64,000 nt of DNA. It comes from an uncultured virus (IMG/VR IMGVR_UViG_3300021425_000021). Lineage: Duplodnaviria > Heunggongvirae > Uroviricota > Caudoviricetes. Numbering within the stretch: position 1 is the stretch's first letter; each line of letters opens with the position of its first letter. Where the stretch lies: IMG/VR virus record IMGVR_UViG_3300021425_000021. The stretch is one strand, 5' to 3'. The notes below the pieces were generated by a model. The model ran no database searches. It saw only the letters and a program-made list of their open reading frames with translations, and was not told the origin of the DNA. This document shows, one piece after another, positions 4,287 to 62,076 of the stretch. The translations under genes were made by a program, and so were the position numbers.

Positions 4287-4315
4287 ATTATATCATAGAA
4301 TGAAAAGGTTGTACA
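4287..4315 (-). promoter_or_regulatory. Early promoter of rnh
   Basis: TGTACA-17-TATAAT. Confidence 0.8.
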
Positions 4316-4393: not shown

Positions 4394-7372
4394 CTAAATT
4401 AATGTCTCCATTACCTTATAAGTTGTACTATTAGTTGAAGCGGAGGTGGCTTTTACCACAACATTTCCTCCACTGATTTCTGCGGTGTATGTTGCTAAGG
4501 ACGCATTTGTATAAATTACACCATATTCTGTTAGTGTGACTGTTGTGCCATCGTGCACTAACAGGATTTCTGACATTTGCCGTTCACCACTTACGGTATC
4601 GGCGGCTTGAATTACTAGTTTTGCACCTAGATGTGACGTTGGGAAGGCTGCAATTTGTGTTGCTGTTGTTGTAGTTAGCGTTTCTACTTCACCAGTCATG
4701 TCCGCAATAGTTGTTGCAGTTACATCAGCACTATATACCTGATGGATATGTCCGGCAAAAGTACCCGGGATATTTGCACTAGTTCTAACTTCTACTGTTC
4801 CATTATAAGGAAATTTAAATCTAGCGCCATTTCTAAAGTTGATTTGACCTTGTGAAGAGTTTGCAACTAGCTCAAAGTAGCTACTTCCTGCTTTAATTCT
4901 AGTGTCCCTATCGGTTCCTGTACCTAGGGCTTCCGTACCAATCTCAAAAAAATTGTTATTCCATTTTAAGAAGCCACGTTCATAGTTGGAAGCGTCAGTG
5001 TAGGTGTTATAGATATTAAACGTCTGGGCATTTGTACCATTACGTTGGGCCATAACACCAGCAGCATCCCTATAAAATGTAGTATCTACAGCACCAGTTA
5101 GACCCGTGCTATTAAAGCCAGAAGAAAAACCAATAACACCTCTGCCTCGTACAGTAACTCCATCTTCAAACCAAACTCTATAATTTGCTGACTGATCTCT
5201 AATCCCTATTCTTCCGTCTGTTACTTCTAAGTCAGAATAAGTAGGTAGTACTATTCTTGCTCTACCTGCCGCATCTCCTTCCTTAAAGCGAACAACTTCT
5301 GTATCTGCATCACCTACTTCAAATATAATTTCATTAGCACCAATATGAAGCGGAGCACGTGTATTTGTTGTTGGGCTTTGCGTGTAAAGTTTTGTTCTAA
5401 AGAAGTAATAGTTTTGTCCGTTAGGATAATTTGTTCCAGTGTCCCATTCGTTTGTGTTTGACGCTGACATTTCTAATGTAGAAGCATTAATAGGTCCAGT
5501 ATTATTTTTGCCAAGTCTTAGTTGAGGAATGTGTGCCCAATTAGATTTGACCTCAATAGCGCCTCCAGTGGTTCCAGCAATACCAGTACCAAAACCCACG
5601 GTGCCATACGAAGAAACTTGAGCTAATTGCTGATATCCTCCAGATACTGTTGCTCTCATATCGAGTGCCCAGCGGCCATCTGCATGCACACTACGTGTTC
5701 TAAACCTAGACTCACTGTTATTGGCATTTGGTGCCATCTCAAATATGCCGGTTGGCGCAGCTACATTAATACCTACCGAATCACCAATAATATTTACATC
5801 ATGAAGTGTACCTGTGCCAGAAGCTTCTGCACCAATTTCAAATACGTTACTATTCCACTTTAAAGAAGCACGCTCATAGTTAGAAGCATCAGTGTAGGTG
5901 TTGTAGATGTTAAACGTCTGTTCATTCGTGCCATTGCGTTGAGCAAGAGTATTAGCCGCATCTCGTTCTAGAACTAGGTCAGGCGTTCCCCACCAGTTAG
6001 TAGTGCCATTAAAATGAATACCTCTACCGCTTGCAAGTGTTAAGCCACGCGTGTTATACAAGGAGGTTCTATTATCCGATATAATAAATGGAGCTTCAAA
6101 CCGTTGCGCGACGACCTGGCCACCATTATGACTGTTTATTTGAACTCCACCGCTAATAAAGCTAGCTGTGCCAGTAGTGGCTAATTGCGATCCATCCCAC
6201 GTTAGGTTACTATCACCTTGAATTGTAGTAGAGTTAGTCCATATGGCTAATTGATTATCCACCGGCGTGCCAGCTTTAGTTACATCATCAGTTCCACCGC
6301 CGGCAGAAGCTTCAACCCACTGTGCCGATGATCCATCATTATAATATATAAAAAGAGAGCCAACGTCAGAATCCCACCAAAGGTCACCATCCGCCGGACT
6401 AGATGGAGCGCTAGACTGTATTGGAACTCCAGCGCTATAAGCTTTATACTCAAATTTTGCGGTTGAAGAGTTGTACACTAATACTGTTTGATCTGCTCTA
6501 TCAGTATTATTAACATCGTCCATTTCAACAATATTGCTAGAAATGTCATGTCTATTCAGTATACTTTGAAACGTTTCAGCTTCATACTTTTTAGTTGTAT
6601 TATTAAATATTAAAACTGAGTTATTCGCAAGACTACTTAGGGTTTGTCTTTGAACATCATCGTTGTCCATAATTCGAACAGAACCACCGCCCGATAAAAC
6701 AGGACGGCGAGATAATTCGGAAAGAAAATTATCAATATCGATTTTTTGTAAATTGACTTGTTCGTCTAATTTATCTTCTAAGGTTTTACTTATCTCATTA
6801 ATGTATGGATTAATGTCTGGAAGTATAGCATCTTTACCAGCTGGACCCATAGGACCAATTGGACCTTGTTCGCCAATTAAACCCTGTGGACCCATAGGTC
6901 CAATTGGTCCCTGTTCTCCAATTAAACCCTGTGGACCCATAGGACCAATTGGCCCTTGTTCTCCAATTAAACCTTGTGGACCAATATCGCCTTTATCACC
7001 CTTTGGGCCAGAACGTCCATCATTTCCAGCTGGGCCTTGTTCTCCAATGAGACCTTCCTTACCACGTTGGCCTCGAGGTCCTCGCTCTCCAACGGGACCA
7101 ACATCTCCCTTTATGGATATATGCTTTATAGAGAATGGGTCTGAAGACTCGACGATATAAAAACTACCGTCTTCACCAAAAAAGATAGACCCTTCAGAAA
7201 GTCCTTTTGCCTTCTCTTCATTTAGTCTATGAAGAAATGTATTTGAAGAATCAACTAAGGTTTTTACGGTAGAAGAGAGCGCGGCATTACGTCTATCAGT
7301 TGCTTCTCGTATGATCTGTTTTTTTCTAAGAGATCTTGCTTCTTCAAGTGCCTGCTTTTTTGCAAAATCCAT
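4394..7372 (-). CDS. Collagen-repeat fibre protein (head or tail fibre)
   Basis: About 32 G-X-Y triplets, a GDLWWDSD module, beta-rich repeated modules and a fibre-like C-terminal domain. Confidence 0.8.
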   Translation of the reverse strand: MDFAKKQALEEARSLRKKQIIREATDRRNAALSSTVKTLVDSSNTFLHRLNEEKAKGLSEGSIFFGEDGSFYIVESSDPFSIKHISIKGDVGPVGERGPRGQRGKEGLIGEQGPAGNDGRSGPKGDKGDIGPQGLIGEQGPIGPMGPQGLIGEQGPIGPMGPQGLIGEQGPIGPMGPAGKDAILPDINPYINEISKTLEDKLDEQVNLQKIDIDNFLSELSRRPVLSGGGSVRIMDNDDVQRQTLSSLANNSVLIFNNTTKKYEAETFQSILNRHDISSNIVEMDDVNNTDRADQTVLVYNSSTAKFEYKAYSAGVPIQSSAPSSPADGDLWWDSDVGSLFIYYNDGSSAQWVEASAGGGTDDVTKAGTPVDNQLAIWTNSTTIQGDSNLTWDGSQLATTGTASFISGGVQINSHNGGQVVAQRFEAPFIISDNRTSLYNTRGLTLASGRGIHFNGTTNWWGTPDLVLERDAANTLAQRNGTNEQTFNIYNTYTDASNYERASLKWNSNVFEIGAEASGTGTLHDVNIIGDSVGINVAAPTGIFEMAPNANNSESRFRTRSVHADGRWALDMRATVSGGYQQLAQVSSYGTVGFGTGIAGTTGGAIEVKSNWAHIPQLRLGKNNTGPINASTLEMSASNTNEWDTGTNYPNGQNYYFFRTKLYTQSPTTNTRAPLHIGANEIIFEVGDADTEVVRFKEGDAAGRARIVLPTYSDLEVTDGRIGIRDQSANYRVWFEDGVTVRGRGVIGFSSGFNSTGLTGAVDTTFYRDAAGVMAQRNGTNAQTFNIYNTYTDASNYERGFLKWNNNFFEIGTEALGTGTDRDTRIKAGSSYFELVANSSQGQINFRNGARFKFPYNGTVEVRTSANIPGTFAGHIHQVYSADVTATTIADMTGEVETLTTTTATQIAAFPTSHLGAKLVIQAADTVSGERQMSEILLVHDGTTVTLTEYGVIYTNASLATYTAEISGGNVVVKATSASTNSTTYKVMETLI
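6843..6985. repeat. Three tandem 45-bp collagen units (GLIGEQGPIGPMGPQ)
   Basis: Near-identical tandem repeats visible in both DNA and protein. Confidence 0.9.
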
Positions 7373-8829: not shown

Positions 8830-9300
8830 TTATTTATTAAAGCTGCTCACTACTCTTTTGATTTCTTCCTTTGGTATTTCTTGTTTTTGTACTAATTGAA
8901 TAGACGCAGCATCATAAATAATATAAACATCATGCTCAGGTATATGCCAATTAATATCTAAAACTGTGCCGGATTTACGCGGAATTGTATATTTTATGGC
9001 ATCATTATCATTACGTGTTTGCTTCCCAGTCTGAGATCCAATATCTTCAATACGAGAAGGAGTAAGTTTTACTGTATAGAGCCACGGCTTAGATCCCTTA
9101 GCGTCTTTTCGTTGTATTGCGCTTTTAGCATAATTGATTGCAACATCTTTATTCGTGGTAAAATATGCTCCACCGCCTCCGGCAACATCATTAATAGCAC
9201 GGCCACGATCAACCGTGAATTTATTAATGTCACTGGTATTTGTGCCGTGATAAGCAATGATAGAAGCTTGCTCATTGATTAATTCTTTGAATGATTTCAT
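8830..9300 (-). CDS. ADP-ribosyltransferase-like protein with a capsid-targeting-like N-terminus
   Basis: AYHGT, GGGAYFTT..VAINYA and LYTVKL ART strands. N-terminus MKSFKELINE. Confidence 0.7.
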   Translation of the reverse strand: MKSFKELINEQASIIAYHGTNTSDINKFTVDRGRAINDVAGGGGAYFTTNKDVAINYAKSAIQRKDAKGSKPWLYTVKLTPSRIEDIGSQTGKQTRNDNDAIKYTIPRKSGTVLDINWHIPEHDVYIIYDAASIQLVQKQEIPKEEIKRVVSSFNK

Positions 9301-10605: not shown

Positions 10606-10634
10606 ATTATATCCCTTTATGAGTCTTTTGTACA
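10606..10634 (-). promoter_or_regulatory. Leaderless early promoter of nrdB
   Basis: TGTACA-17-TATAAT-6nt-ATG. Confidence 0.75.
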
Positions 10635-21983: not shown

Positions 21984-22018
21984 ATTATATAACAAAAGGG
22001 CTATGTTGTACATAGCCC
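21984..22018 (-). promoter_or_regulatory. Early promoter fused to a terminator-like stem-loop
   Basis: TGTACA-17-TATAAT. GGGCTATGT/ACATAGCCC inverted repeat (21998-22018) followed by TTTT. Confidence 0.75.
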
Positions 22019-22303: not shown

Positions 22304-22681
22304 TTATATAGTTGCGGTTATGTACGGGAAATCTTCAATATTGTCAGCTGTAACTGGATTTTCAATAGTATCTAGATTAGATATTTCAAGAGCCACATTA
22401 AATTGACACGACATCATATCCCATTTATCTTCCAACTCTCTAAATTCCGGAAGAAGTACCATTCGCCCGACTACACCGCATTCAACGATATTAGCGCCAA
22501 CACACGCTCCAATTTTATCGCCAGACTCATTTATAATTGGAACATCATCCTGTTCAATTTGATCAATAATAAATGTAGCTACGCTTTCATCATATACACG
22601 GCCAGATGGCATCTCGATATCAAAGAAAAACATCGGTGCCGCGCAATCAATACTCATATATGTTCCTGTGCTATCAATCAT
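22304..22681 (-). CDS. Hypothetical protein
   Basis: GGAGG RBS. Weak resemblance to a prohead-protease fold (SGRVY) but no clear catalytic motifs. Confidence 0.55.
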   Translation of the reverse strand: MIDSTGTYMSIDCAAPMFFFDIEMPSGRVYDESVATFIIDQIEQDDVPIINESGDKIGACVGANIVECGVVGRMVLLPEFRELEDKWDMMSCQFNVALEISNLDTIENPVTADNIEDFPYITATI

Positions 22682-23261
22682 TTTGACCTCCTAATATAGC
22701 AACATCTTCAATAATAGTTTCATTTTCATCTTCATCTTCAATAGACATAATGTCTTCGACAATATGATGAATTGCATTAGTGTTATCATATTCAGTATAT
22801 GATATATTGTTGTTAGACAGCAAAGATTCAATACGCATTTGAATTACTTCGCTTTGATATTCACTGTGTACTCTGCCCGCTTGCCTAAATTTAGTGTTCT
22901 CATCACGAGAAATTAAATAGTTTAGATTGCTATCGGTTTGATCATGATACCATTTGAGCGTATCGATATAAGCCTGTGGATGATGTTCTAAGCAATAGGC
23001 TGCGCCAAGAAATGCTGGACTATCAGTAACTACCCATGCGCATTTTCCATCTAAACGGTGAATCATATAAAATTGGCGCGCCGTAACATATGCTTGGTTT
23101 GAAAGAGCTGATGCGTTCGATTCCCATACTAGTTCTTTCGCAAACTCAGGCACTAACTCAATATCCCAACCTCTGCCGCTTAGCTTTGAGTAAATACCAG
23201 CTGCAATTGTAGATTTACCTACACCCGGCGCGCCAAATAAATTGATAAATCTTGTTTTCAT
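22674..23261 (-). CDS. P-loop NTPase/kinase (NadR/AAA_28-like)
   Basis: INLFGAPGVGKST, EFAKELVW, VVTDSP, GRVH. Confidence 0.8.
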   Translation of the reverse strand: MKTRFINLFGAPGVGKSTIAAGIYSKLSGRGWDIELVPEFAKELVWESNASALSNQAYVTARQFYMIHRLDGKCAWVVTDSPAFLGAAYCLEHHPQAYIDTLKWYHDQTDSNLNYLISRDENTKFRQAGRVHSEYQSEVIQMRIESLLSNNNISYTEYDNTNAIHHIVEDIMSIEDEDENETIIEDVAILGGQND

Positions 23262-24015: not shown

Positions 24016-24687
24016 TTATGCATTTTTTTCATTCCAATATTCTTTGAGCATCGGAAAATGGAATTCAACAATATCTTTAGCCTGCAACGCAATATCCATA
24101 TGTTCTTTCTGAGTTCCGTTCGCAGCGCGTAAATCGATATAGTGAATCCATGACCGAAGTGATCCAGCCATATAAAGCGTTGTGCCTGTCAGACCTTCAG
24201 GTAACAATGCTCGTGCCTGTTCTTTTGCAATTCCTTGTTTCAAAGCCCATTTATAATTTTCTTTCGCAAACTTTAATGTTCTAGATTGAGCGCGTTCAAA
24301 CTCAATTTGAAGCATTTTATCATCTGTCTCAATAGAGTTTTGGCGATTCTTTTCATCTTGAAGTCTTGCTTCACGCGCAATTGTAAAGTTCTCAGACTCA
24401 GCATACCGTTGACTAAACTCTTGAAACGAGAACGAACGGTGACGTAAGATCTGACGAGAGATGTCGCGGGTAGTATCAATACCCATAGTCAAATGTACCA
24501 TTTCAAAGGGCGACCAGTGTGCGTGTTTGATCAAGTACTTGACCAGTTTGTCAGCAGTTTCCATGTTGCTTTGGTTAGCTGGGTTTGACACACGAGCTGT
24601 ATATGCCACTAGGTCTTGAGCCGTGTAGCAATCGCGGGCAACCGCACTTGGCTTTGACATTGCAATAAGATAAACTTTTTGTTCCAT
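24016..24687 (-). CDS. thyX: Flavin-dependent thymidylate synthase
   Basis: HWSPFE, RQILRHRSFSFQEFSQRY, ARALLP. Confidence 0.97.
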   Translation of the reverse strand: MEQKVYLIAMSKPSAVARDCYTAQDLVAYTARVSNPANQSNMETADKLVKYLIKHAHWSPFEMVHLTMGIDTTRDISRQILRHRSFSFQEFSQRYAESENFTIAREARLQDEKNRQNSIETDDKMLQIEFERAQSRTLKFAKENYKWALKQGIAKEQARALLPEGLTGTTLYMAGSLRSWIHYIDLRAANGTQKEHMDIALQAKDIVEFHFPMLKEYWNEKNA

Positions 24688-26067: not shown

Positions 26068-26096
26068 ATTATATACCATTTTCGCTATTTTGTACA
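26068..26096 (-). promoter_or_regulatory. Leaderless early promoter of gp41
   Basis: TGTACA-17-TATAAT-6nt-ATG. Confidence 0.75.
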
Positions 26097-27175: not shown

Positions 27176-27204
27176 ATTATATCATACATAGTACTAATTG
27201 TACA
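27176..27204 (-). promoter_or_regulatory. Early promoter of uvsX
   Basis: TGTACA-17-TATAAT. Confidence 0.8.
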
Positions 27205-28162
27205 TATTAATTTTGTAATAATCTAAATACCAATCAATAAAATTATTGACGCCCTCTTCAATTGATACAATAGGCTTATAACCAATTAGATTTTGTAGTT
27301 TAGTTGTATCTGCCCATGTCATAGGAACATCGGCTGGATGCTTTGGTTGATAATCAATAATAGCTTTTCTATCAAGCTTTAACTCAATTGCTTTAATAAA
27401 GTCCATAAGCTTAACTGGCTCGCCTCGACCAATATTAAATATTTCACTGAATTTTTCGCCTTGTAAAGAAATATGGTACGATAAAACGCCAATTACTCCA
27501 TTAGCAATATCATCAACATACGTAAAGTCACGAGTCATGTTTCCGTTATTGAAAGCAATAATTGGTTTTCTTTCGATGATACCCTTCGTAAAAAGGAATA
27601 GCGCCATATCTGGGCGACCGTATGGTCCATATACCGTAAAAAAGCGAAGGCCAGTTGTACGTGAAAGATTAGAGTGCATAAATTGACATTCGTTTGAACG
27701 CTTAGACCATCCATATGGATTATTTTGATGGCCTGGCAAATCTTGTTCATTCCATGGCAGTGGTTGACCATGCATAACACATGAGCTTGAAGCGTATACT
27801 ACGTCCTGAATATTTAACTCTTCGCACACTTCAATTAAGTTTTGAGTACCATGTATATTTGTGTCAATGTATGGACGTGGCTCACGAAGAGAATGTCTTG
27901 GATTTGCGTAGGCAGCCAAATGTAAAACTACATCTGGGTTAGCTTCTTTAATTCCTGCCCTTAATGCATCCTTATCTAAAATATCATAATGGCCAATCTG
28001 AACTCTTAGCTTACTTAGCTTTTTAGCTCTAGCCTTTTTTAAAAGTGGATCATAATAATCATTATAATTATCGCAACCATAAACGTCATGGCCTTGTTGA
28101 ACTAACATTTCTGCAGTGCGCGCGCCAATCATACCAGCTAAGCCCGTAATAAAAACTTTCAT
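27194..28162 (-). CDS. NAD-dependent epimerase, UDP-glucuronate 4-epimerase (CapI/GAE)-like
   Basis: TGLAGMIG, DNYNDYYDPLLK, YASSS, YGWSK, LRFFTVYGPYGRPDMA, RDFTYVDD. Confidence 0.85.
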   Translation of the reverse strand: MKVFITGLAGMIGARTAEMLVQQGHDVYGCDNYNDYYDPLLKKARAKKLSKLRVQIGHYDILDKDALRAGIKEANPDVVLHLAAYANPRHSLREPRPYIDTNIHGTQNLIEVCEELNIQDVVYASSSCVMHGQPLPWNEQDLPGHQNNPYGWSKRSNECQFMHSNLSRTTGLRFFTVYGPYGRPDMALFLFTKGIIERKPIIAFNNGNMTRDFTYVDDIANGVIGVLSYHISLQGEKFSEIFNIGRGEPVKLMDFIKAIELKLDRKAIIDYQPKHPADVPMTWADTTKLQNLIGYKPIVSIEEGVNNFIDWYLDYYKINMYN

Positions 28163-29418
28163 TATGCCATATCTCCTATCTGAAAAAATTGTTCTAAATC
28201 ATTCGTTGTGTTTTCGATAGGTGTATTTATGGAGATATCAATGATCTCTTTTACAACATCTGCGCCATCGGCGTGGCTTTTCCAAAACTCAAACGCCTGC
28301 TCTCGATAAATATCTCGTAAAAATGCATCATCTGAAAGATTTCTCATGATATGGGCACACTCTTCCATATTATCCGAATCTAGAAAAATAGTTCCGCTTT
28401 CCTTTGATTCAATAACTGGATCGCCTGTTTTATGATGAATAACATGTCTACCAAAATGTTTATGGAAAATTGGTACTGTGCCACATGCAATTGGTTCTGC
28501 ATGACAATTTTCGATATTATTCCCATACATATGTGGTTTTAAATGATAAAGATCTGAGCCAAAGGCAGATAGTGACATACGATTCATACAATCTACGTGT
28601 GTATATGGCGGATAAAGATAGACTTCTCCCGCAACTTCTTGGCCATGTAAATCCTCTGACCACTTTCTATCACCATATTCTTTTTCTGGACGAAAGTAGT
28701 TTACGCATTGCCGACGATTTTGATATTCTTTATCTTTATATAAAACTCCTTTATAACCAATGCTCGCTTCAAGGCCTTCAAGTATTGTTGTATAATTCAA
28801 AGCTCGTAGCTGCTCATTATGAAAATCAATCATAAGCTGAGGACCTTTCCAGCCAGCTAGCCGGCCAATCCATCTTACTTCCCTTGGTTTCTGTTGGCTA
28901 ACATCTTTCCAATATTTAGAACGATAGCCATCGAAATCAAACCCTAAACGCATTTTAAGAAGCGGTGTAGTAATATTTTCTTTTTTAGCCCATTCAGAAA
29001 ATGGATTAGTCAATGCATGAGTCATAGCCACATCAACTTCATTAACAATTTCTTTTAGGTTTGCGTTACGTGCGATTGATTGTGCATTATGATCGACGTT
29101 AATAAACGATTTGCGCACTTTAATAAGACGCAATAGCTCTAGAAAATTATCCTGAGTTTCCTGTGGATGGCTTTTACTTGGTACTGAATATACCACGACT
29201 AAGTCATATGAGTTGAGTTGATTTATAAGGCTTGACTCAATACCCTTTTTTAGATTAAACTCGACATATTCTCCCGGAAACTCAATCTTTTTTCCACGTG
29301 GCCACTTCTTATCTACACATGATAGAATAGTAGCGCCAGATACTATTTGCATTTGAATAGCACACTGTGTTACGCCGCATCCTTCTGTTCCACGTCCAAG
29401 TATAATACCTATTTTCAT
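28162..29418 (-). CDS. agt: DNA alpha-glycosyltransferase (T4 alpha-glucosyltransferase homolog)
   Basis: RGTEGCGVT, SVP, YWKDVS, RWIGR..WKG, EGLE, ACGTVPIF, colinear with T4 a-gt as recalled. Confidence 0.88.
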   Translation of the reverse strand: MKIGIILGRGTEGCGVTQCAIQMQIVSGATILSCVDKKWPRGKKIEFPGEYVEFNLKKGIESSLINQLNSYDLVVVYSVPSKSHPQETQDNFLELLRLIKVRKSFINVDHNAQSIARNANLKEIVNEVDVAMTHALTNPFSEWAKKENITTPLLKMRLGFDFDGYRSKYWKDVSQQKPREVRWIGRLAGWKGPQLMIDFHNEQLRALNYTTILEGLEASIGYKGVLYKDKEYQNRRQCVNYFRPEKEYGDRKWSEDLHGQEVAGEVYLYPPYTHVDCMNRMSLSAFGSDLYHLKPHMYGNNIENCHAEPIACGTVPIFHKHFGRHVIHHKTGDPVIESKESGTIFLDSDNMEECAHIMRNLSDDAFLRDIYREQAFEFWKSHADGADVVKEIIDISINTPIENTTNDLEQFFQIGDMA

Positions 29419-29882
29419 AACAATATTTCTTCTTTTTTATATTCTAGTGTTTCAATATTCGTATTTGTTTTTTGTAGTATATTTAAGCTAGTATTCCATT
29501 CAGTATTCCAATAAGGATCGTCATAAAGATTGACATAAACAAATCGAGTAATTCCTGCGGCGATTAGGTGCTTCATACAATTAGGACATATGATAAGACC
29601 CCAAACATAAATAGTCGAACCTTCTAGAGATCTTGCTGTTCTAGTAGCATCCATTAAAAGATTCATTTCAGCATGAATAATAAGGTCGTATTTAATAGTT
29701 CTATCTTCTAACCACTCTGGCTTATCTTCGATTCCTGACGGAAACCCGTTGTACCCAGTTGCTATAATACGATTGTTGATCGTAGCAACTGAGCCAATTT
29801 GTTTTGATGGATCTTTAGACCAAGAGGATACTTCCTTAGCAATTCTAAGAAAGCGTTTATCCCATTTTTCAGAATAGTTCAT
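29415..29882 (-). CDS. cd: dCMP deaminase
   Basis: SKDP, TGYNG, HAEMN, CPNC. Start reassigned to MNYSEKWD. Confidence 0.9.
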   Translation of the reverse strand: MNYSEKWDKRFLRIAKEVSSWSKDPSKQIGSVATINNRIIATGYNGFPSGIEDKPEWLEDRTIKYDLIIHAEMNLLMDATRTARSLEGSTIYVWGLIICPNCMKHLIAAGITRFVYVNLYDDPYWNTEWNTSLNILQKTNTNIETLEYKKEEILL

Positions 29883-30597
29883 ATTGCCCCAATAATCCAT
29901 CATTATCATATTCTTTGCGTGTAATATGAGTTCGACCAGTTTTTGCATAAGCATCTACTAAGTAAAACTGTGACTCATAAACATGAAGCGATCCAGCTTG
30001 CCAAATAATATCGCCAGCCTCTATTTGTAAATCTCTAGACAATTTAAGCAATACATATTTTTGCCAGGCAAAATCATTACGATAACCAGCCCACGCATCA
30101 TTCGATCTCATATTTACAATAGCATGTATTTTATTATTTCGAATAAGATATTGAACTGCGTTTGTGCACATGAAATCTGTCATACCATCACGAACACTAT
30201 CAGTATGCATTGATGGACGAGTGTAAATCATTACCGCTTGACGCGTACTTGGCTGATTATACAAAGCAGCGCATACATTACGATATTGATTACCATTCTC
30301 CAGAGAAAAGATACACCAGCCATAATTTGAATTAATTTCTCCTTTATCTGAAGACACCATTTCCCATATTGCAGGTGTTTTTCCAGGTATATCATTTACA
30401 TTAAGTGATTGGCTTTGATACCACTCAAGTTCATGTTGAATATATTGATGATTTGGTTTGCCGAAAATATGATCGTCAGAAGCAATGAACTGTGCGCCTA
30501 CGATTTCTAAAACTTTTGATCCATCTTTATTTATGACAAAATCTTGGCGCTTTAGCTTTGACGCAAACTCACTGCGGATACTTTCAATTGACATCAT
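29869..30597 (-). CDS. 42: dCMP hydroxymethylase
   Basis: INSNYGW, DFMCT, MRSNDAWAGYRNDFAWQKYV (Asp at the dCMP-specificity position), GSLHVY. Start reassigned to MMSIES. Confidence 0.92.
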   Translation of the reverse strand: MMSIESIRSEFASKLKRQDFVINKDGSKVLEIVGAQFIASDDHIFGKPNHQYIQHELEWYQSQSLNVNDIPGKTPAIWEMVSSDKGEINSNYGWCIFSLENGNQYRNVCAALYNQPSTRQAVMIYTRPSMHTDSVRDGMTDFMCTNAVQYLIRNNKIHAIVNMRSNDAWAGYRNDFAWQKYVLLKLSRDLQIEAGDIIWQAGSLHVYESQFYLVDAYAKTGRTHITRKEYDNDGLLGQYELF

Positions 30598-30934
30598 TAG
30601 GCTTACTCCGATTTGGCTTATTGCTAGTAAGAGACATATCTTCAGTTTGACCTGGCACACCGCCCCGACACCATGCCGCAGCAAACGAGCAATAGTTTAC
30701 CATATCTTTGAAAGTATCTTCCAAGCTTTCAAAATTAGGTTCCGCACCATGTTCTGCAGCTTCAACAAGAGAAACAGCCCGAAGATACTTACTATGAATG
30801 GTATCCATAAGAGACAAAACACCGCGTGGATAATAATCTGACTGAACGATTGTCGATTTGGGGTTTTGATAATCTTCTGATTTTTTGGTTTGGAGCTCAG
30901 CACACTCTTTAAGAACTTTAAGGGATTCACGCAT
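30584..30934 (-). CDS. Nucleotide-modification-associated (Nmad1/DUF1599-like) alpha-helical pyrophosphatase-like protein
   Basis: KKSEDY...K..R...ESLEDTFKDMVNY pattern, first gene of the modification operon. Confidence 0.7.
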   Translation of the reverse strand: MRESLKVLKECAELQTKKSEDYQNPKSTIVQSDYYPRGVLSLMDTIHSKYLRAVSLVEAAEHGAEPNFESLEDTFKDMVNYCSFAAAWCRGGVPGQTEDMSLTSNKPNRSKPNDVN

Positions 30935-30962
30935 TTATAATCTTTCTCAATTGATATAATAT

Positions 30963-30991
30963 ATTATATACTATCTTTATAAGTTTGTACA
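30963..30991 (-). promoter_or_regulatory. Early promoter of the DNA-modification operon
   Basis: TGTACA-17-TATAAT. Confidence 0.8.
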
Positions 30992-33441: not shown

Positions 33442-33501
33442 TATCATAAAACTCCAGGAAAGTAAACTAAAAAATGCAATTATTACACATTTGTAATCTT
33501 T
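33442..33501 (-). repeat. Dispersed promoter/operator cassette, copy 4
   Basis: Near-identical to 1535-1594. The palindrome at 33482-33497 overlaps the stop codon of the upstream gene. Confidence 0.9.
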
Positions 33502-33932
33502 TCAAAGGCCTTTGTTAAAAGTCCATGATTACCTTCGTGCGATGGACCTTGCCAACCTTCTGGCTTAATAAGATCTGGAAGTCCAAGCGGATTAGGCCTT
33601 GACTCTTTAATGCCAGGTTTTTTGGAAATATTAGCAGAATGTACTTCATTCCATGCTTTATCGGCATCTACTTCAAACAAGTCAAGTGTTCCAATAGCTA
33701 CCACACAAATGTCAATTAAAGCATCAACTACTTCTTCGGCGTCATTCGTTGCGGTCGCTTCAACTAATTCATTAAACTCTTCACGAATAAAATTTACACG
33801 AAAGGCCAAAAGACTTTTTAGTTTTTCACTATCCATCTCACCTACTTTATTATGGACTTTAAAAAATTTATGCATATAGTTAATATTTGATAGCCAGTCA
33901 GATGATTTAGTAAATAGATTTGGATTAGACAT
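33483..33932 (-). CDS. MazG-like dNTP pyrophosphatase (candidate dCTPase/dUTPase)
   Basis: EEFNE...EEVVDALID...N.SK...KPEGW. Confidence 0.85.
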   Translation of the reverse strand: MSNPNLFTKSSDWLSNINYMHKFFKVHNKVGEMDSEKLKSLLAFRVNFIREEFNELVEATATNDAEEVVDALIDICVVAIGTLDLFEVDADKAWNEVHSANISKKPGIKESRPNPLGLPDLIKPEGWQGPSHEGNHGLLTKAFEKITNV

Positions 33933-39247: not shown

Positions 39248-40969
39248 TTAATCTTCAGCACATACTGAAAAGTTATTTATCTTTTTGAAATTGAGTTTTC
39301 TAGGAAATTTAGAATCTAACACATCTTTTTTATGAGATATGACAAATACATTTGTGTTTTCTTCGAGTGTGTCTAATATTTTAAGAAGGTTATCCACGCC
39401 ATCAGTATCAAGACTAGAGTCAAACGTTTCATCGAGTAAGAGTAAATTTGTTCTCATAGAGTTTTTCATTGAAGCTAATTGGCGCCACGTAAAAAGAAGT
39501 GCTAAATCGATACGTGCTTTTTCACCCTCAGAAAATGATGAGTAAGAGAAAACATCACGGTGTCTTGACTTAATAATCTCTTTAAAGTTTTCGTCAAGTG
39601 TAAACTGAACAAAGAAATCTAGCACTTGAAGATATTGATTAATAAGTTTATTAATTATGGGTCTATACTTACGAATAATTTTTGTTTTAATGCCAGTGTC
39701 CTTGAGCATTTCAAACTTAAGACTATTATAATTCATTTGTTCATTGATGTCACGAATATTGACCTCAATCTGGTTTTTTTCTATTTCAAAGGCACGTAAG
39801 TCATGATTAGCAGATTCAATATCTCCACCTTTTTCTTGAAGATTCGCAATATCCTGATTCAATTGATTAATACGTCGAGTAACCATGCGCATTTCTTCTT
39901 GATAACTACGCAGCTTATCTTCTTCGACAGCAATCTTCGATAAAACTTCTTTAAGCTTATCCATATTAGATGCAATATTATTAATTGCCGAGTTTACCTC
40001 ATCTTTTTGAGAATTAAGCTCTTCTATAGACGTATAATGACGTTCGATTTCAGCGTTAGAAAGTTCACGATCAACGCTTTGAGTACAGACTGGACACGTA
40101 TCGTTATGCTCAAAAAAGTTAATTGTCTTCTTTGACATTTTAATTTCGTTATCAAGAGAAGATAGCTTTTTACGATCGGCATCCATACGATTCTGCAATG
40201 AATCCATACGACGGCGATATTCATTATTATTAGCTTCTACACGCTTGTTTAATTTTTTAGCCGCAGAGTCAAAAGAGTCATGATCTTTAAAAAGTTGATC
40301 AATCTCTAAACGCTTTTCGTCGATTAATCCTTGATTTAGTTGTTGAATATCATGAATATATTTTTGCTGAACACGTATTTTTTCAGATATAATTTTCAGA
40401 TTAGTAGTGTTATCTCGATGTTGTTCTTTTATTGCGCTATGATGCTCCCGCAATATTTGATTCATTTTTGTAAAGATGTTAATATCTAAGAGATTTTCAA
40501 TAATATCGCGACGCTGGCCCGTGGGTAACTGCATAAATGGAATAAACGATGACGATCCTAAAACTACCACTTGATTAAAAGACTTGTAGTTCAAGCGTAA
40601 AATAGTTTGTTCTAAATACGATTGATAATCGCGTGAAGAAGCAGATTGATTGATTAATTCTTTGTTATGATAAATCTCAAAGATCCCAGGTCTTTGACCG
40701 CGTATAACTTTATACTTGTTTCTTCCTATATCAAACTCTACTTCAACCTGCATATTTTTTTCATTGATACTATTGACAAGTTGAGGTTTATTAATATTAC
40801 GATGAGGCTTATTAAATAGAACATAGTTTAAGGCGTCAAGCAATGTGGATTTGCCTGCGCCATTTTCGCCTACAATTAAAGTTTTTGTGGACTTACATAA
40901 GTCTATTTCGGTGAAATTATCGCCGGTAGATAAAAAGTTTTTCCACTTAAGTGTGCGGAATATAATCAT
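39248..40969 (-). CDS. 46: Recombination endonuclease subunit (Rad50/SbcC-like)
   Basis: GENGAGKST, CPVC hook, FSEGE, LLDE. Confidence 0.97.
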   Translation of the reverse strand: MIIFRTLKWKNFLSTGDNFTEIDLCKSTKTLIVGENGAGKSTLLDALNYVLFNKPHRNINKPQLVNSINEKNMQVEVEFDIGRNKYKVIRGQRPGIFEIYHNKELINQSASSRDYQSYLEQTILRLNYKSFNQVVVLGSSSFIPFMQLPTGQRRDIIENLLDINIFTKMNQILREHHSAIKEQHRDNTTNLKIISEKIRVQQKYIHDIQQLNQGLIDEKRLEIDQLFKDHDSFDSAAKKLNKRVEANNNEYRRRMDSLQNRMDADRKKLSSLDNEIKMSKKTINFFEHNDTCPVCTQSVDRELSNAEIERHYTSIEELNSQKDEVNSAINNIASNMDKLKEVLSKIAVEEDKLRSYQEEMRMVTRRINQLNQDIANLQEKGGDIESANHDLRAFEIEKNQIEVNIRDINEQMNYNSLKFEMLKDTGIKTKIIRKYRPIINKLINQYLQVLDFFVQFTLDENFKEIIKSRHRDVFSYSSFSEGEKARIDLALLFTWRQLASMKNSMRTNLLLLDETFDSSLDTDGVDNLLKILDTLEENTNVFVISHKKDVLDSKFPRKLNFKKINNFSVCAED

Positions 40970-41283
40970 ATTTCTTTTTCACTCATAAGAATATCTTCAA
41001 GAACAAACATAAGGTCACAGATGGCATGAGATAATACATGACATCCAGACTCTTCATCAATTTCAATTCCTGTTTGAAACTCATTAATATGGCGTAGAGC
41101 CGCGTCTAAGTAACGCGATTGCAAATTATCTAGTTTACGCCAATTATTCGGTGCGTATTTCTGTGCACCGAATGTTAAAACATTTGAAGTTTCACGTAAA
41201 GCGCGCGGCGGAACTAAGCTCATCATAGATTTTCCGCTATCATATTTAACGCCATTACAATCTTTCTGCATACAGTGCCTCAT
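40966..41283 (-). CDS. dATP/dGTP diphosphohydrolase-like domain protein (DUF5664)
   Basis: GVKYDSGK...VLTFGAQKY..NNW...AALRH...D.ESG..HAIC. Confidence 0.8.
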   Translation of the reverse strand: MRHCMQKDCNGVKYDSGKSMMSLVPPRALRETSNVLTFGAQKYAPNNWRKLDNLQSRYLDAALRHINEFQTGIEIDEESGCHVLSHAICDLMFVLEDILMSEKEI

Positions 41284-42877: not shown

Positions 42878-42934
42878 ATTATATACTATTTTAAAAAGAA
42901 TGTACACTACTTTTTTTTATTACAAGTGTGTAAT
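42878..42934 (-). promoter_or_regulatory. Leaderless early promoter of gp55, with an upstream palindrome
   Basis: TGTACA-17-TATAAT-6nt-ATG. ATTACA-AGTG-TGTAAT at 42919-42934. Confidence 0.75.
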
Positions 42935-59338: not shown

Positions 59339-59758
59339 TTATATGATCCTATCAAGTACAAGAGTGATAGTACCATCATCTTGAACAGTTCCTTCGCCAT
59401 CACGTATTTCAAAAAAGATTTGAGAAGTTGCTGAGTTAGTACCAGTGAGAGACCAGGTGCGTGATGATGTGAGAGCTTGCCATGTATTGAGCGTGCCTGA
59501 TGGTGTTGAACCACTACTAAGAGTTGCTCGTATCTCATAGTCGCCTGGGGCAGATGACTTTGGATCGACCCAATCACCTAACGAAGCTGAAGGCGTGCCA
59601 GACGGCGCAACAATGTCACCGTCAGATTGAAACTGCACAGAAGCAGTATTTGTTCCCGAAACAAACTGAGTCGTGATAGTTCTTGTAGGAACTCTGATAA
59701 CATCAGCCGGCTCTGCCGAGTTAATACACTGCGCCAGCATATGAAGAATCATACTCAT
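59339..59758 (-). CDS. Fibre-associated beta-rich protein
   Basis: Coupled downstream of the fibre gene, S/T/G-rich. Confidence 0.55.
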   Translation of the reverse strand: MSMILHMLAQCINSAEPADVIRVPTRTITTQFVSGTNTASVQFQSDGDIVAPSGTPSASLGDWVDPKSSAPGDYEIRATLSSGSTPSGTLNTWQALTSSRTWSLTGTNSATSQIFFEIRDGEGTVQDDGTITLVLDRII

Positions 59759-62076
59759 TAAGTTAGATTTCCAAATACATGACAGTCTGTGCTAGTACGA
59801 AATAATACCGCCATAGTACTATTTCCTGCCAAAGTTACTGAAGCAGTATTAGCACCATTAAAGAACATAGACAAACCAGATCCACGCGTAATAGTTCTAG
59901 AAGTACTTCCAGTACTAATGATAACAATATCACGTCCTGTAAAGGTTCCACTTGGTATTGTTATATCACCATCCGCGAATACAACTGTATTAGCATCAGC
60001 CGATGTAATAGAAGTACGAGACGCTCCGGTAGATCGTCCAGTTATGGTGTCAGCGGTAAAGTCACCACTAACATCAACGTCGGTTGGCAAGCCAATAGTA
60101 ACAGTAGAACCTTCTGATCCAGAACCAGATACTTCTACTTCATTGGCTGTTCCAGCGATTGTTGCAATATAATTACCTGTTGTGTTTGTTCCTAAAGCAA
60201 CTGCATTATTTGTTATTGTTGCGGTCAATGTTCCAGAAGCAAGATTCGTAAGAGTAACTGATCCGCTTAAGTCTCCGGCAAGAGTAATGACCGGATCAGG
60301 AATATTAGTAAAGTTTGCAAACTCTAGGTAATGTGATCCTTGTTGACCATCGAGTAAATCAGCATCTAAGCCAGAAGTAGCACCATCATTGCCAGCATGC
60401 CAAATAACGTTATTAGTATTATTATCTCTAATATATACGCTTGATACGTTTCCATTATCTATGCCAGAAAATATATGAGAACCTTCTGTTTCAATGAAAA
60501 GAGAACCACCGTTTTGTCTGATGCGCGATTCGTCAGATCCAGAGCCTTGATCAGTTTCATTAAGAATAATTCTAGGCTCAGCCAAAGAAACTGTTAAGTT
60601 ACCGGTGATAGTTCCACCGGTAGAAGCTAAGTAACTTAGGGCTGGAATTCTTGCTGAGTCAAATGTGCCTGTTGTAACCTTTGACGCATCAAGACTAGGG
60701 ATTCTAGCGGAGGCAAAGGTTCCGGTAGTAATTTTTGATGTGTCTAGACTTGGAATACGAGATGCTGAAAACGTTCCAGAAGTAATCTTTGACGCGTCAA
60801 GACTAGGGATTCTAGCTAAGGCAAGGGTTCCGGTAGTAATGTCAGCCGCATCATGAGTTTGAGCAGTTAGCTCTTGCTGAACAAATTCTGTAGTTGCTAA
60901 TCGTGTTGAATCATTACCGGTCGCCTGTGTTACTGCGGTTGGGTTTCCGGTAAAAGTAGGAGAAGCCAATGGCGCTTTCAAATCTAATGCCGTTTGAAGA
61001 CCATCAATATTACCAATCACATGGTTATGAGAATCATCGACAATAGAAACTGTAAGAGTACCAGACGCAAGATTTGTTAGCGTCACACTACCTGTCGCAT
61101 CACCCGCTAAGGTTATGACTGGATCAGCAACATTTGTCAGATTAGTAAAGTCTAAGTAGTATGATCCTTCTTGACCGTCAAGTAAGTCAGCGTCTAGTCC
61201 CGATCCAGAACCAGCGGCAAATCTAGCGGTTGGAATAGTTCCAGAGCTAAGATTACTTGCGTTAGTGTAGTAGCTACCTTGTTGACCATCGAGTAAATCG
61301 GCATCTAGACCAGAAGCAGCGCCATCATTACCAGCATGCCATACTGTATTCGATGATACTGCCAACACACCGGTCGATGTGTTCCACGTAAAATTAGAAT
61401 TACCTTCGATCGTACCATCACCCGTCCATACCGCAACTTGATTATCTGCTGGCGTACCAACTTTTAAAACATCACCGCCACCAGAAGCAGCAACTGCGCT
61501 TTGTACGAATTGGGTTGTAGCAATTTGAGCTGTAGAAGTTCCAGACGTAGCAGTTGGCGCCGTAGGAGTTCCGGTCAAAGCCGGTGAAGCTAGGGTAGCA
61601 TATGTGCCAAAGTCAGAAATCTGCGACTCAGTAATTGATAGAGCGGCTTGATGTTGAGTGACATTTGACTGCGCAATTCGAGCATCTAAAAAGGTGCCAG
61701 AAGTAATAGCGCTTGTAGATAAACTTAAACTGCCGATTTCCTGCTGAACAAATGCTGTAGTAGCTATTTGTGTAGTATTAGTCGATCCAGAAGCAGTTGG
61801 TGCCGCTGGCGTTCCAGTAAAAGTAGGAGAGGCTAACGATGCTTTACCTGCTAAGTCAGCATCAACCTCATTAATAGCAACAACTAAGTTGCCGTTGGCG
61901 GTTGTTGTAAGTGATGATAACGTGCCAATCTCGCCATCAATTTCGTTAATTGCGGTTGCAACACTAGTTGCCGTAGTCGTAAGAGTAGAGATTTCGCCTA
62001 CGTCTGTCACGAAAAGATTATATTGATCTGCCCATGCACCGAGTAGTGTTGAATCTGTTACTGATCTATCTGCCAT
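59758..62076 (-). CDS. Tail/neck fibre protein with mosaic repeats
   Basis: ASPTFTGTPTAPT x3, DADLLDG x3, RIPSLDASKITSGTF x4. Confidence 0.85.
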   Translation of the reverse strand: MADRSVTDSTLLGAWADQYNLFVTDVGEISTLTTTATSVATAINEIDGEIGTLSSLTTTANGNLVVAINEVDADLAGKASLASPTFTGTPAAPTASGSTNTTQIATTAFVQQEIGSLSLSTSAITSGTFLDARIAQSNVTQHQAALSITESQISDFGTYATLASPALTGTPTAPTATSGTSTAQIATTQFVQSAVAASGGGDVLKVGTPADNQVAVWTGDGTIEGNSNFTWNTSTGVLAVSSNTVWHAGNDGAASGLDADLLDGQQGSYYTNASNLSSGTIPTARFAAGSGSGLDADLLDGQEGSYYLDFTNLTNVADPVITLAGDATGSVTLTNLASGTLTVSIVDDSHNHVIGNIDGLQTALDLKAPLASPTFTGNPTAVTQATGNDSTRLATTEFVQQELTAQTHDAADITTGTLALARIPSLDASKITSGTFSASRIPSLDTSKITTGTFASARIPSLDASKVTTGTFDSARIPALSYLASTGGTITGNLTVSLAEPRIILNETDQGSGSDESRIRQNGGSLFIETEGSHIFSGIDNGNVSSVYIRDNNTNNVIWHAGNDGATSGLDADLLDGQQGSHYLEFANFTNIPDPVITLAGDLSGSVTLTNLASGTLTATITNNAVALGTNTTGNYIATIAGTANEVEVSGSGSEGSTVTIGLPTDVDVSGDFTADTITGRSTGASRTSITSADANTVVFADGDITIPSGTFTGRDIVIISTGSTSRTITRGSGLSMFFNGANTASVTLAGNSTMAVLFRTSTDCHVFGNLT

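Follow-up and report, generated by a model that had tools for sequence, protein, structure and literature searches.

The stretch of DNA considered here, called the window at its full length of 64,000 nucleotides, is the uncultured-virus record IMGVR_UViG_3300021425_000021 of IMG/VR. Its minus strand, which bears nearly all window genes, holds a promoter motif and five overlapping or abutting genes at positions 27194-30991. These encode an Nmad1-like protein, a dCMP hydroxymethylase of the T4 gp42 type, a dCMP deaminase, a homologue of the T4 alpha-glucosyltransferase (AGT) and a short-chain dehydrogenase/reductase (SDR) predicted to be a UDP-glucuronate 4-epimerase (Table 1). The operon is real and conserved, and it is probably a cytosine-hypermodification unit of a marine T4-like phage.

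A Pfam survey covering 55 of the 86 non-overlapping open reading frames (ORFs) of the window, with 12 more scanned separately, recovered a T4-like myovirus gene set. This includes gp23, the gp20 portal, sheath, tube, terminase, gp43, gp44/62, gp45 and gp46/47, as well as UvsW/X/Y, RegA, RNase H and NrdAB. The nearest phage isolate in GenBank is Phage C48C1 (Kyanoviridae), with a gp43 identity of only 46%, and a megablast search of the operon region against GenBank phages gave no match. Together, these two results point to an uncultured phage that is only distantly related to the cyanophage-type T4-like viruses. The module occupies the interval from gp43 to uvsX, which in T4 contains gene 42 and b-gt; this placement, already made in a sequence-only reading that preceded the analysis, agrees with the T4 gene order.

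Table 1. Positions of the features discussed, in the window unless a related locus (L number) is given
Feature	Position	Strand	Basis or remark
Promoter motif TGTACA-N17-TATAAT	30963..30991	minus	Heads the five-gene unit; same motif before nmad1 in L003 and L040
Nmad1-like (DUF1599) small protein	30584..30934	minus	PF07659, weak; always directly upstream of the hydroxymethylase
dCMP hydroxymethylase, T4 gp42 type	29869..30597 (ORF open to TTG 30684)	minus	T4 gp42 structure 1b49, E 6.8e-87
dCMP deaminase, start codon uncertain	29415..29954	minus	PF00383 1.7e-16; PHROG dCMP deaminase 1e-45
AGT homologue (T4 alpha-glucosyltransferase family)	28162..29418	minus	PF11440 4e-32, 112.1 bits; 1xv5 E 4.5e-43; phrog_2888 5.7e-71
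LEQFF codons near the AGT C-terminus (AGT residues 408-412)	28183..28197	minus	Resembles gp43 tail LESFFA
SDR epimerase, predicted UDP-glucuronate 4-epimerase	27194..28162	minus	PF01370 1.3e-45; PDB ranking; residues
Next promoter-motif copy, in front of uvsX	27176..27204	minus	Exact-motif search
MazG-like NTP pyrophosphohydrolase, candidate dCTPase (T4 gp56 role)	33483..33932	minus	PF01503 2.3e-12; phrog_671 nucleotide pyrophosphohydrolase
Thymidylate-kinase-like P-loop protein, candidate dNMP kinase for hm-dCMP (putative role)	22674..23261	minus	PF13521 3.6e-7; phrog_2107 thymidylate kinase 3.8e-10
ThyX flavin-dependent thymidylate synthase, dTMP supply	24016..24687	minus	PF02511 2.6e-41
Mini-dehydrogenase examples, not in window	L040 2316-3128; L065 6917-7774; L001 8936-9895		
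C5-methylase-like gene examples, not in window	L040 6966-8156; L065 7767-8957; L005 8018-9211		

The five genes are tightly packed. The epimerase ATG overlaps the agt stop in the sequence TAATG at 28162, an overlap claimed beforehand and read directly from the letters, as was the ATGA overlap at 29418. The hydroxymethylase gene, read from its ATG at 30597, shares 14 bases with the end of the Nmad1 gene. The motifs RSND, GYRND, DNYNDYYD and LRFFTVYGPYGRPDMA are all present in the window.

A generic sigma-70 scan of the region returned 30 sites against 26.8 +/- 5.4 in shuffled sequences, which is no excess. The exact motif TGTACA-N17-TATAAT was found in eight copies in the window where 0.09 were expected. 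All are on the coding strand, just upstream of gene starts: besides the two copies in Table 1, they lie at 453-481, 4287-4315, 10606-10634, 21984-22012, 26068-26096 and 42878-42906, again on the minus strand. In 142 related loci (1.16 Mb), the coding strand holds 90 copies of the same motif and the opposite strand none. By this distribution, TGTACA-N17-TATAAT is a predicted lineage-specific promoter motif, and it is the excess of exact copies that upholds the earlier proposal of a promoter heading five overlapping genes, all elements of which were located on the minus strand. Copies before the Nmad1 gene and before uvsX suggest that the five genes form one unit between two promoters.

Among the five labels, Nmad1 is the weakest. 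The window protein matches PF07659 with an E-value of 1.2e-4 and 22.8 bits, under the 25-bit cut-off, and six of its 11 homologues match the same family at E<=0.01 (best 6.2e-7). The position of this gene upstream of the hydroxymethylase is conserved across relatives. The Nmad1-like protein matches the second half of phrog_18404 (positions 168-255) and the MazG-like protein the first half (positions 52-139), suggesting that fused MazG-Nmad1 proteins occur in other phages.

Cytosine base and nucleotide supply

The hydroxymethylase is a close match to T4 gp42 (Table 1). The alignment begins at residue 28 of the ORF, so that the true start is likely the ATG at 30597. C173, within the motif DFMCTN, is the equivalent of C146 in E. 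coli ThyA and is found in 32 of 34 aligned sequences, the other two being truncated there. Three further positions carry Asp almost throughout the same alignment. These are D170, equivalent to ThyA L143 (32 of 34 sequences, gaps in the rest); D196 of RSND, equivalent to ThyA D169 (33 of 34, which is every sequence covering the site); and D204 of GYRND, equivalent to ThyA N177 (33 of 34, with one truncated).

The significance of these residues can be read from work on other T4-like phages. In the text available of Lee et al. 2026 (PMC13326640), phages RB69 and DLP3 are described as making 5-hydroxycytosine with gp42-like thymidylate synthase homologues, and Asn at the position of E. coli ThyA Asp169 is proposed as diagnostic of a 5-hydroxycytosine synthase. 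The same text associates Asp at the ThyA N177 equivalent with dCMP rather than dUMP as substrate, and an acidic residue at the L143 equivalent with water access and a hydroxymethyl product (Lee et al. 2026, PMC13326640). Asp at the ThyA-169 equivalent therefore leads to 5-hydroxymethylcytosine (5hmC, or hmC), not 5-hydroxycytosine, as the predicted base made by the window enzyme. By this residue, RB69-type 5-hydroxycytosine chemistry is rejected. The earlier identification of a dCMP hydroxymethylase with the dCMP-type Asp holds on both the gp42 match and the ThyA-177 equivalent.

Other candidate enzymes of nucleotide supply are encoded in the operon and nearby (Table 1). The dCMP deaminase scores 60.4 bits against PF00383 (cut-off 25), and its translation contains the zinc-binding motifs HAE and CPNC. 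The MazG-like gene adjoins the ORF o311 in all seven loci of the AGT class that cover that spot and in none of six C48C1-like loci.

Epimerase, transferase and their linkage

The best solved relative of the epimerase is 5u4q, a Klebsiella protein that scores 260.7 bits and shares the FTVYGPxGRPDMA stretch. Next in rank are the B. cereus UDP-glucuronate 4-epimerase 6zl6 (159 bits), its variant 6zlj (157.2 bits) and MoeE5 (102 bits). Scores for other classes are at most 100 bits for GalE structures, 78-86 for WbgU/WbpP, 72-74 for UDP-glucuronate decarboxylases and 61-84 for genuine RmlB dehydratases. No NCBIfam model reached its cut-off in a scan of the epimerase, the GalE model TIGR01179 scoring 128 bits against 262. 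Among the 120 best metagenomic homologues, 32 are functionally named, and the name is UDP-glucuronate 4-epimerase in every case.

Residues of known function are also retained. Counted along the pairwise alignment to the B. cereus structure, S126, S127, Y150, K154, T176 and R183 of the window epimerase correspond to T126, S127, Y149, K153, T178 and R185 of B. cereus UGAepi. S126, Y150 and K154 make up the Ser/Thr-Tyr-Lys catalytic triad, and its Tyr and Lys are kept without exception in 64 of 64 phage sequences, a set that excludes the short SDRs of loci L005 and L006, which fall below the 1e-20 filter. The NAD-binding GxxGxxG motif (G7, G10 and G13) is kept in all 60 of the 64 that cover the site, and the Thr/Ser network (S127, T176) and the Arg185 equivalent (R183) are invariant in every covering sequence. 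At the position of B. cereus Ser128, the window epimerase and all 52 AGT-linked sequences covering the site have Cys. The consulted part of Borg et al. 2025 (PMC12338863) describes the Thr/Ser network as holding the carboxylate of UDP-glucuronate, and Arg185 alone as holding that of UDP-galacturonate; loss of the carboxylate hold yields a primitive decarboxylase (UDP-xylose synthase).

Classed by bit scores and carboxylate-binding residues, not by a tree, the SDR is a predicted UDP-glucuronate 4-epimerase and not a GalE. Its placement in that clade rather than with GalE was part of the sequence-only reading and is borne out by the structure scores, which also set it apart from WbpP, by the residues and by the 32 named homologues. 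A decarboxylase (UDP-xylose synthase) reading of the SDR was also considered; it is disfavoured by the scores of 72-74 bits and by the Arg185 equivalent.

Linkage to the transferase was scored in two IMG/VR samples. The sample seeded with the epimerase comprised 62 loci, of which 52 had an epimerase 54-72% identical to that of the window; three of these 52 lacked upstream sequence, leaving 49 to be scored. The sample seeded with an AGT alignment comprised the best 80 of 221 stretches, 79 of them with room downstream. The two samples share contigs and the best 80 are the closest matches, so the counts are not independent. Of the 49 epimerase-seeded loci, 46 have an AGT-family gene as the immediate upstream neighbour of the epimerase. 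Of the 79 AGT-seeded loci, 78 have an epimerase as the next gene downstream of the AGT, with a gap of at most 78 bp in 75 and mostly of 0-15 bp. The linkage to agt in related genomes that the sequence-only reading required is upheld by both samples. A second AGT subtype, 31% identical to that of the window and closer to that of T4, shows the same linkage to epimerase and dehydrogenase (L057-59, L065).

The usual gene order in relatives is Nmad1, hydroxymethylase, deaminase, a small ORF, AGT, epimerase, a short UDP-glucose/GDP-mannose dehydrogenase homologue, a C5-cytosine-methylase-like gene and uvsX. A hydroxymethylase is present in 45 of 49 loci that have at least 2.5 kb upstream of the AGT. 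The dehydrogenase homologue, here called mini-UGDH after the full-length UDP-glucose dehydrogenases (UGDHs), occurs in 57 of 65 loci with room for it, and no locus has AGT and UGDH without the epimerase. Phage C48C1 and most relatives have it next to the epimerase. At 270-320 aa it includes a Rossmann motif and the catalytic-Cys stretch; solved UGDHs are listed at 393-495 aa. In L005 and L065, an extra copy of the promoter motif lies directly before agt, suggesting that agt, epimerase and UGDH form a unit of their own. The window and the near-identical contigs L002-L004 have a reduced form in which AGT and epimerase are followed by uvsX.

The C5-cytosine DNA methylase-like gene, of about 396 aa (PF00145, ~1e-15), follows the dehydrogenase and precedes uvsX in 47 of the 50 relatives that have room for it, and a phmmer search of it against the PDB gave no match. 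It stands there in genomes that are predicted to be without plain cytosine. In a variant module found in L005 (1882-9211) and L006, the place of the 4-epimerase is taken by a short SDR of 252 aa; with it are an AGT (45% identical), the hydroxymethylase and deaminase, a phosphomannomutase and a dehydrogenase homologue. This variant may make a different sugar acid. L019 (2286-6019) and L020 encode the epimerase closest to that of the window outside its own species (64%), and it is thyX, not the hydroxymethylase and deaminase genes, that lies directly upstream of agt in these loci. No hydroxymethylase was found there in the 2.3 kb before agt.

T4 AGT is a retaining enzyme with the GT-B fold, and its family acts on hmC. 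The window homologue scores well above the 25-bit cut-off of PF11440, aligns to T4 AGT over residues 1-395 (Table 1) and is about 31% identical to enterobacterial AGTs. Across all five AGT groups, 43 columns are identical to T4 AGT, including the G-R-x4-K stretch and E303/H306, which we take from the GT-B literature to be donor-binding residues. K103 (T4 V109) and R368 (T4 Y370) were examined as candidates for carboxylate binding. Both are gained relative to the T4 group, a reference of only three sequences in which the sugar is known for T4 alone, yet they are uninformative because they are present in AGTs without an epimerase too.

The C-terminus of the transferase resembles that of the phage polymerase. 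In relatives, AGT ends in GLEEFFA and gp43 in TLE(E/D)FFA; the window gp43 ends in LESFFA near 33953. A loose tail pattern matches three of the 86 window ORFs, and an LExFF tail is found only in gp43 and AGT, the third ORF (59758-62076) having matched through an unrelated LFRTS stretch. T4 gp43 ends in SLDFLFG, and the a-gt and b-gt products of T4 are without such a tail. In T4-type polymerases, this C-terminal tail is the sliding-clamp-binding peptide. AGT may likewise ride on the sliding clamp and, to judge from its polymerase-like tail, act at the replication fork. A predicted complex of AGT residues 375-418 with three copies of the gp45 homologue scored 0.56, against 0.51 and 0.45 for controls, a margin that favours neither answer on clamp binding.

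AGT homologues were also found outside T4-like phages. The IMG/VR loci L007-L017 and L154 encode AGTs of about 474 aa that are 50-53% identical to that of the window and have a different C-terminus. They adjoin DUF3127, DUF6378 and tail lysozyme genes, with no epimerase or hydroxymethylase nearby.

Proposed pathway and competing explanations

These components can be arranged into a pathway for the synthesis of a sugar-modified base. The MazG-like pyrophosphatase would lower the dCTP pool, and the gp42-type enzyme, to judge from its strong homology and four diagnostic residues, would convert dCMP to 5-hydroxymethyl-dCMP. The kinase and the phage polymerase would place hmC in DNA, and the dCMP deaminase would feed dUMP to ThyX, the two enzymes together supplying dTMP. 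UDP-glucose would be oxidised to UDP-glucuronate by the host in the case of the window phage, and by the phage mini-UGDH in most relatives. The SDR would then epimerise UDP-glucuronate to UDP-galacturonate, as its homology and carboxylate-binding residues suggest. Finally, the AGT homologue, possibly acting at the replication fork through its polymerase-like C-terminal tail, would transfer the acidic sugar to the hydroxymethyl group of hmC in duplex DNA. Donor, acceptor and anomer are predicted from gene linkage, and the conserved linkage likewise points to alpha-galacturonosyl-hmC as the product.

On enzyme homology and conserved gene linkage, alpha-galacturonic acid is the most likely sugar on hmC, with a probability that we place slightly above even. 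The sequence-only reading had proposed galacturonosyl-hmC built from a phage-made donor. Its epimerase class and its agt linkage stand, while the identity of the sugar is still read from gene content. The presence of a UGDH homologue in most relatives strengthens the case for a uronic acid.

Several observations weigh against this proposal. The depositors of 5u4q labelled it a dTDP-glucose 4,6-dehydratase; we assume it to be an NAD-dependent epimerase. Gene overlaps are common throughout the window genome regardless of function. The 64-kb window contains no UGDH homologue and no methylase-like gene, so that the donor precursor would have to come from the host or from the part of the genome outside the 64 kb. 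The mini-UGDH of relatives is without the C-terminal UDP-binding domain of solved UGDHs, which makes its activity uncertain. In the alignment of AGT groups, no residue was specific to the epimerase-linked ones. Three of the 49 related epimerases have no AGT neighbour: two lie in glycan clusters with GT17, GT34, GT1 and GT9, and one lies in a T4-like genome, flanked by uvsW and a gp47-like gene and without a neighbouring glycosyltransferase. The complete C48C1 genome has an epimerase (49.5% identical) and a mini-UGDH at the same position; it has no PF11440 AGT, thymidylate-synthase-family gene or C5-methylase. This pair indicates that the sugar module can exist without hmC. In another complete relative (G003), a scan of 116 of the 122 ORFs of 150 aa or more, namely those not spanning a piece border, revealed a pair of GT25 genes, a second SDR gene and a gene for an FkbM methyltransferase, 45 kb away from the module. 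Its extra glycosyltransferases imply other consumers of nucleotide sugars, and the notion that AGT is the only sugar consumer was rejected on account of the GT25 genes and the second SDR.

Much of this would fit another arrangement, in which AGT transfers host UDP-glucose as in T4, while the epimerase, and the dehydrogenase in relatives, serves envelope, capsule or virion glycans and merely shares the plastic gp43-uvsX region. The C48C1-like phages that keep epimerase and mini-UGDH here without AGT or hydroxymethylase, the other glycosyltransferases of G003 and the related epimerases in glycan clusters all favour it, as do the 43 columns shared with T4 AGT, the failure to find a carboxylate-specific residue in the AGT, and the unrelated genes that T4 itself has in the gp43-uvsX slot. 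We nevertheless regard glucose as unlikely. AGT is followed by the epimerase in 78 of 79 loci, this holds for two AGT subtypes that share no more than 31% identity, the promoter directly before agt in some relatives makes agt, epimerase and UGDH one unit, and the window has retained its epimerase though the dehydrogenase is gone. The argument from C48C1 is also softened, because a Tet_JBP oxygenase adjoins a candidate sugar cluster in that genome. In a scan of 59 of the 95 within-piece ORFs of at least 170 aa in C48C1 (OQ984149), at ~49.6-53.0 kb (L157 9583-13030), genes for a Tet_JBP oxygenase (472 aa), a 344-aa ORF of unknown function and a UDP-galactopyranose mutase are consecutive; a carbamoyltransferase gene sits elsewhere in the genome. 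This row is a candidate cluster for post-replicative hydroxylation and glycosylation of a base (thymine), and it might use the donor.

Two further alternatives change the sugar or the base. The sugar could be neither glucose nor galacturonic acid but glucuronic acid, with the epimerase balancing pools or running in reverse, or a derivative such as a pentose formed from a released, decarboxylated 4-keto product. The reversibility of the epimerase reaction would allow this, as would the primitive UDP-xylose synthases into which variants turn once their end-point grip on the carboxylate is gone (described in the consulted part of Borg et al. 2025, PMC12338863). The Cys that replaces Ser128 in the window and in 52 AGT-linked epimerases is compatible with such a departure, and the phosphomannomutase, dehydrogenase homologue and 252-aa SDR of L005/L006 hint at other sugar acids in the clade. 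Such a sugar is improbable all the same, given that the Arg185 and Thr178 equivalents are invariant, that decarboxylase structures score 72-74 bits against 159-261 for epimerases, and that a glucuronate donor would need no epimerase, yet it is the epimerase that is the invariant partner and the dehydrogenase that is dispensable. Far less probable still is 5-hydroxycytosine as the base, with the sugar joined directly by an ether bond as in RB69 and DLP3. Gp42-like homologues in the Straboviridae can be hydroxylases, according to the text available of Lee et al. 2026 (PMC13326640), and RB69 and DLP3 too carry their own sugar-donor genes between gp43 and uvsX. However, the diagnostic Asn is absent, Asp being present in the window and in all 33 covering sequences as in T4, and the glycosyltransferase belongs to the T4 AGT family, which acts on hmC.

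Galacturonosyl-hmC is accordingly the product we favour, and it can be extended to a broader proposal that we hold more tentatively, at somewhat below an even chance. A large uncultured clade of marine T4-like phages may replace cytosine with galacturonosyl-hmC. A minimal dehydrogenase of two domains and a 4-epimerase would turn UDP-glucose into the donor, and a clamp-tailed transferase would modify DNA directly behind the fork.

Sugar-coated hmC is a classic phage shield against restriction enzymes and CRISPR nucleases, to which hosts respond with sugar-specific enzymes. If the proposal is correct, galacturonosyl-hmC would be the first case of a DNA base with an O-glycosidic uronic acid, which would add a second negative charge per modified cytosine. 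On cytosine, an acidic sugar would represent a new class of chemistry, and it would alter DNA charge, packaging and protein recognition. It would probably, though this is speculative, escape defences tuned to glucosyl-hmC; the evasion of GmrSD or Brig1 raised in the sequence-only reading is likewise speculative. The best 80 of the 221 AGT-family stretches in IMG/VR are almost all of the AGT-epimerase type. With a module this common, the modification could affect the sequencing and cutting of marine virome DNA as well as host-range prediction. Transferase, epimerase and mini-dehydrogenase would also provide three compact candidate enzymes for DNA glyco-labelling.

Elsewhere in the window, a 105-aa protein (40966-41283), whose gene is flanked by the gp46-like and gp47-like genes, has a match to the dATP/dGTP diphosphohydrolase N-terminal domain (PF18909, 1.5e-28). 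At 8830-9300 / 4394-7372, one protein has a weak match to ART-PolyVal (ADP-ribosyltransferase; 29.3 bits, cut-off 31.2), and a separate protein of 992 aa has collagen triple-helix repeats.

Relation to known systems

Like the bacterial UDP-glucuronate 4-epimerases (B. cereus UGAepi, 6zl6/6zla; MoeE5, 6kv9), the window enzyme is an extended SDR with GxxGxxG, Ser/Thr-Tyr-Lys, the carboxylate network and an Arg185 equivalent. It differs from them in being phage-encoded, in its coupling to a DNA glycosyltransferase rather than to polysaccharide synthesis, and in having Cys where B. cereus UGAepi has Ser128.

Uronic acid on phage DNA has a precedent in Bacillus phage SP-15, which has a phage UGDH in its modification cluster (Kropinski et al. 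2018, PMC5977210, as far as the consulted sections describe it). SP-15 is an unrelated phage, and according to the same sections its modification is a phosphodiester-linked glucuronolactone on dihydroxypentyluracil, a thymine replacement, unlike the O-glycoside on hmC proposed here. Phage-made sugar donors in the gp43-uvsX slot are likewise known from RB69 and DLP3 (Thomas et al. 2018, PMC6024577; Lee et al. 2026, PMC13326640; text available). Their arabinosyl-5-hydroxycytosine system resembles that of the window in placing its own nucleotide-sugar genes beside the base-modifying enzyme in this slot, and in using a sugar other than glucose. Unlike the window system, it uses 5-hydroxycytosine made by an Asn169-type flavin enzyme, a neutral pentose and transferases of other families.

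Further parallels come from metavirome pathways that combine TET, C5-methyltransferase and glycosyltransferase genes. In the portion of Burke et al. 2021 (PMC8256090) that was searched, phage transferases glycosylate hmC, with glucose and N-acetylglucosamine shown, and some contigs have an NAD-dependent epimerase adjoining the transferase, for which the authors speculate on a role in donor supply. These pathways differ from that of the window in making hmC after replication from 5-methylcytosine, and the searched text contains no uronic acid. No published uronic acid on hmC was found in a full-text literature search of main texts, including those of O'Toole et al. 2026, Burke et al. 2021 and Lee et al. 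2026.

The closest counterpart is the glucosyl-hmC system of T4, composed of gp42, the gp56 dCTPase, the Cd deaminase, the gp1 kinase and alpha- and beta-glucosyltransferases. The window shares with it a gp42-type hydroxymethylase, a dCMP deaminase, an AGT-family transferase and the position between gp43 and uvsX. It differs in that its AGT has a polymerase-like tail, in that there is no beta-glucosyltransferase, and in that the dCTPase candidate belongs to the PRA-PH/MazG family. T4 uses host UDP-glucose and has no sugar-nucleotide enzyme, whereas the window transferase is translationally coupled to a predicted UDP-glucuronate 4-epimerase, and in relatives also to a dehydrogenase. Judged by gene content, it is these coupled, putative donor-synthesis enzymes that set the system apart from the T4-like glucosyl-hmC pathway, which it otherwise resembles.

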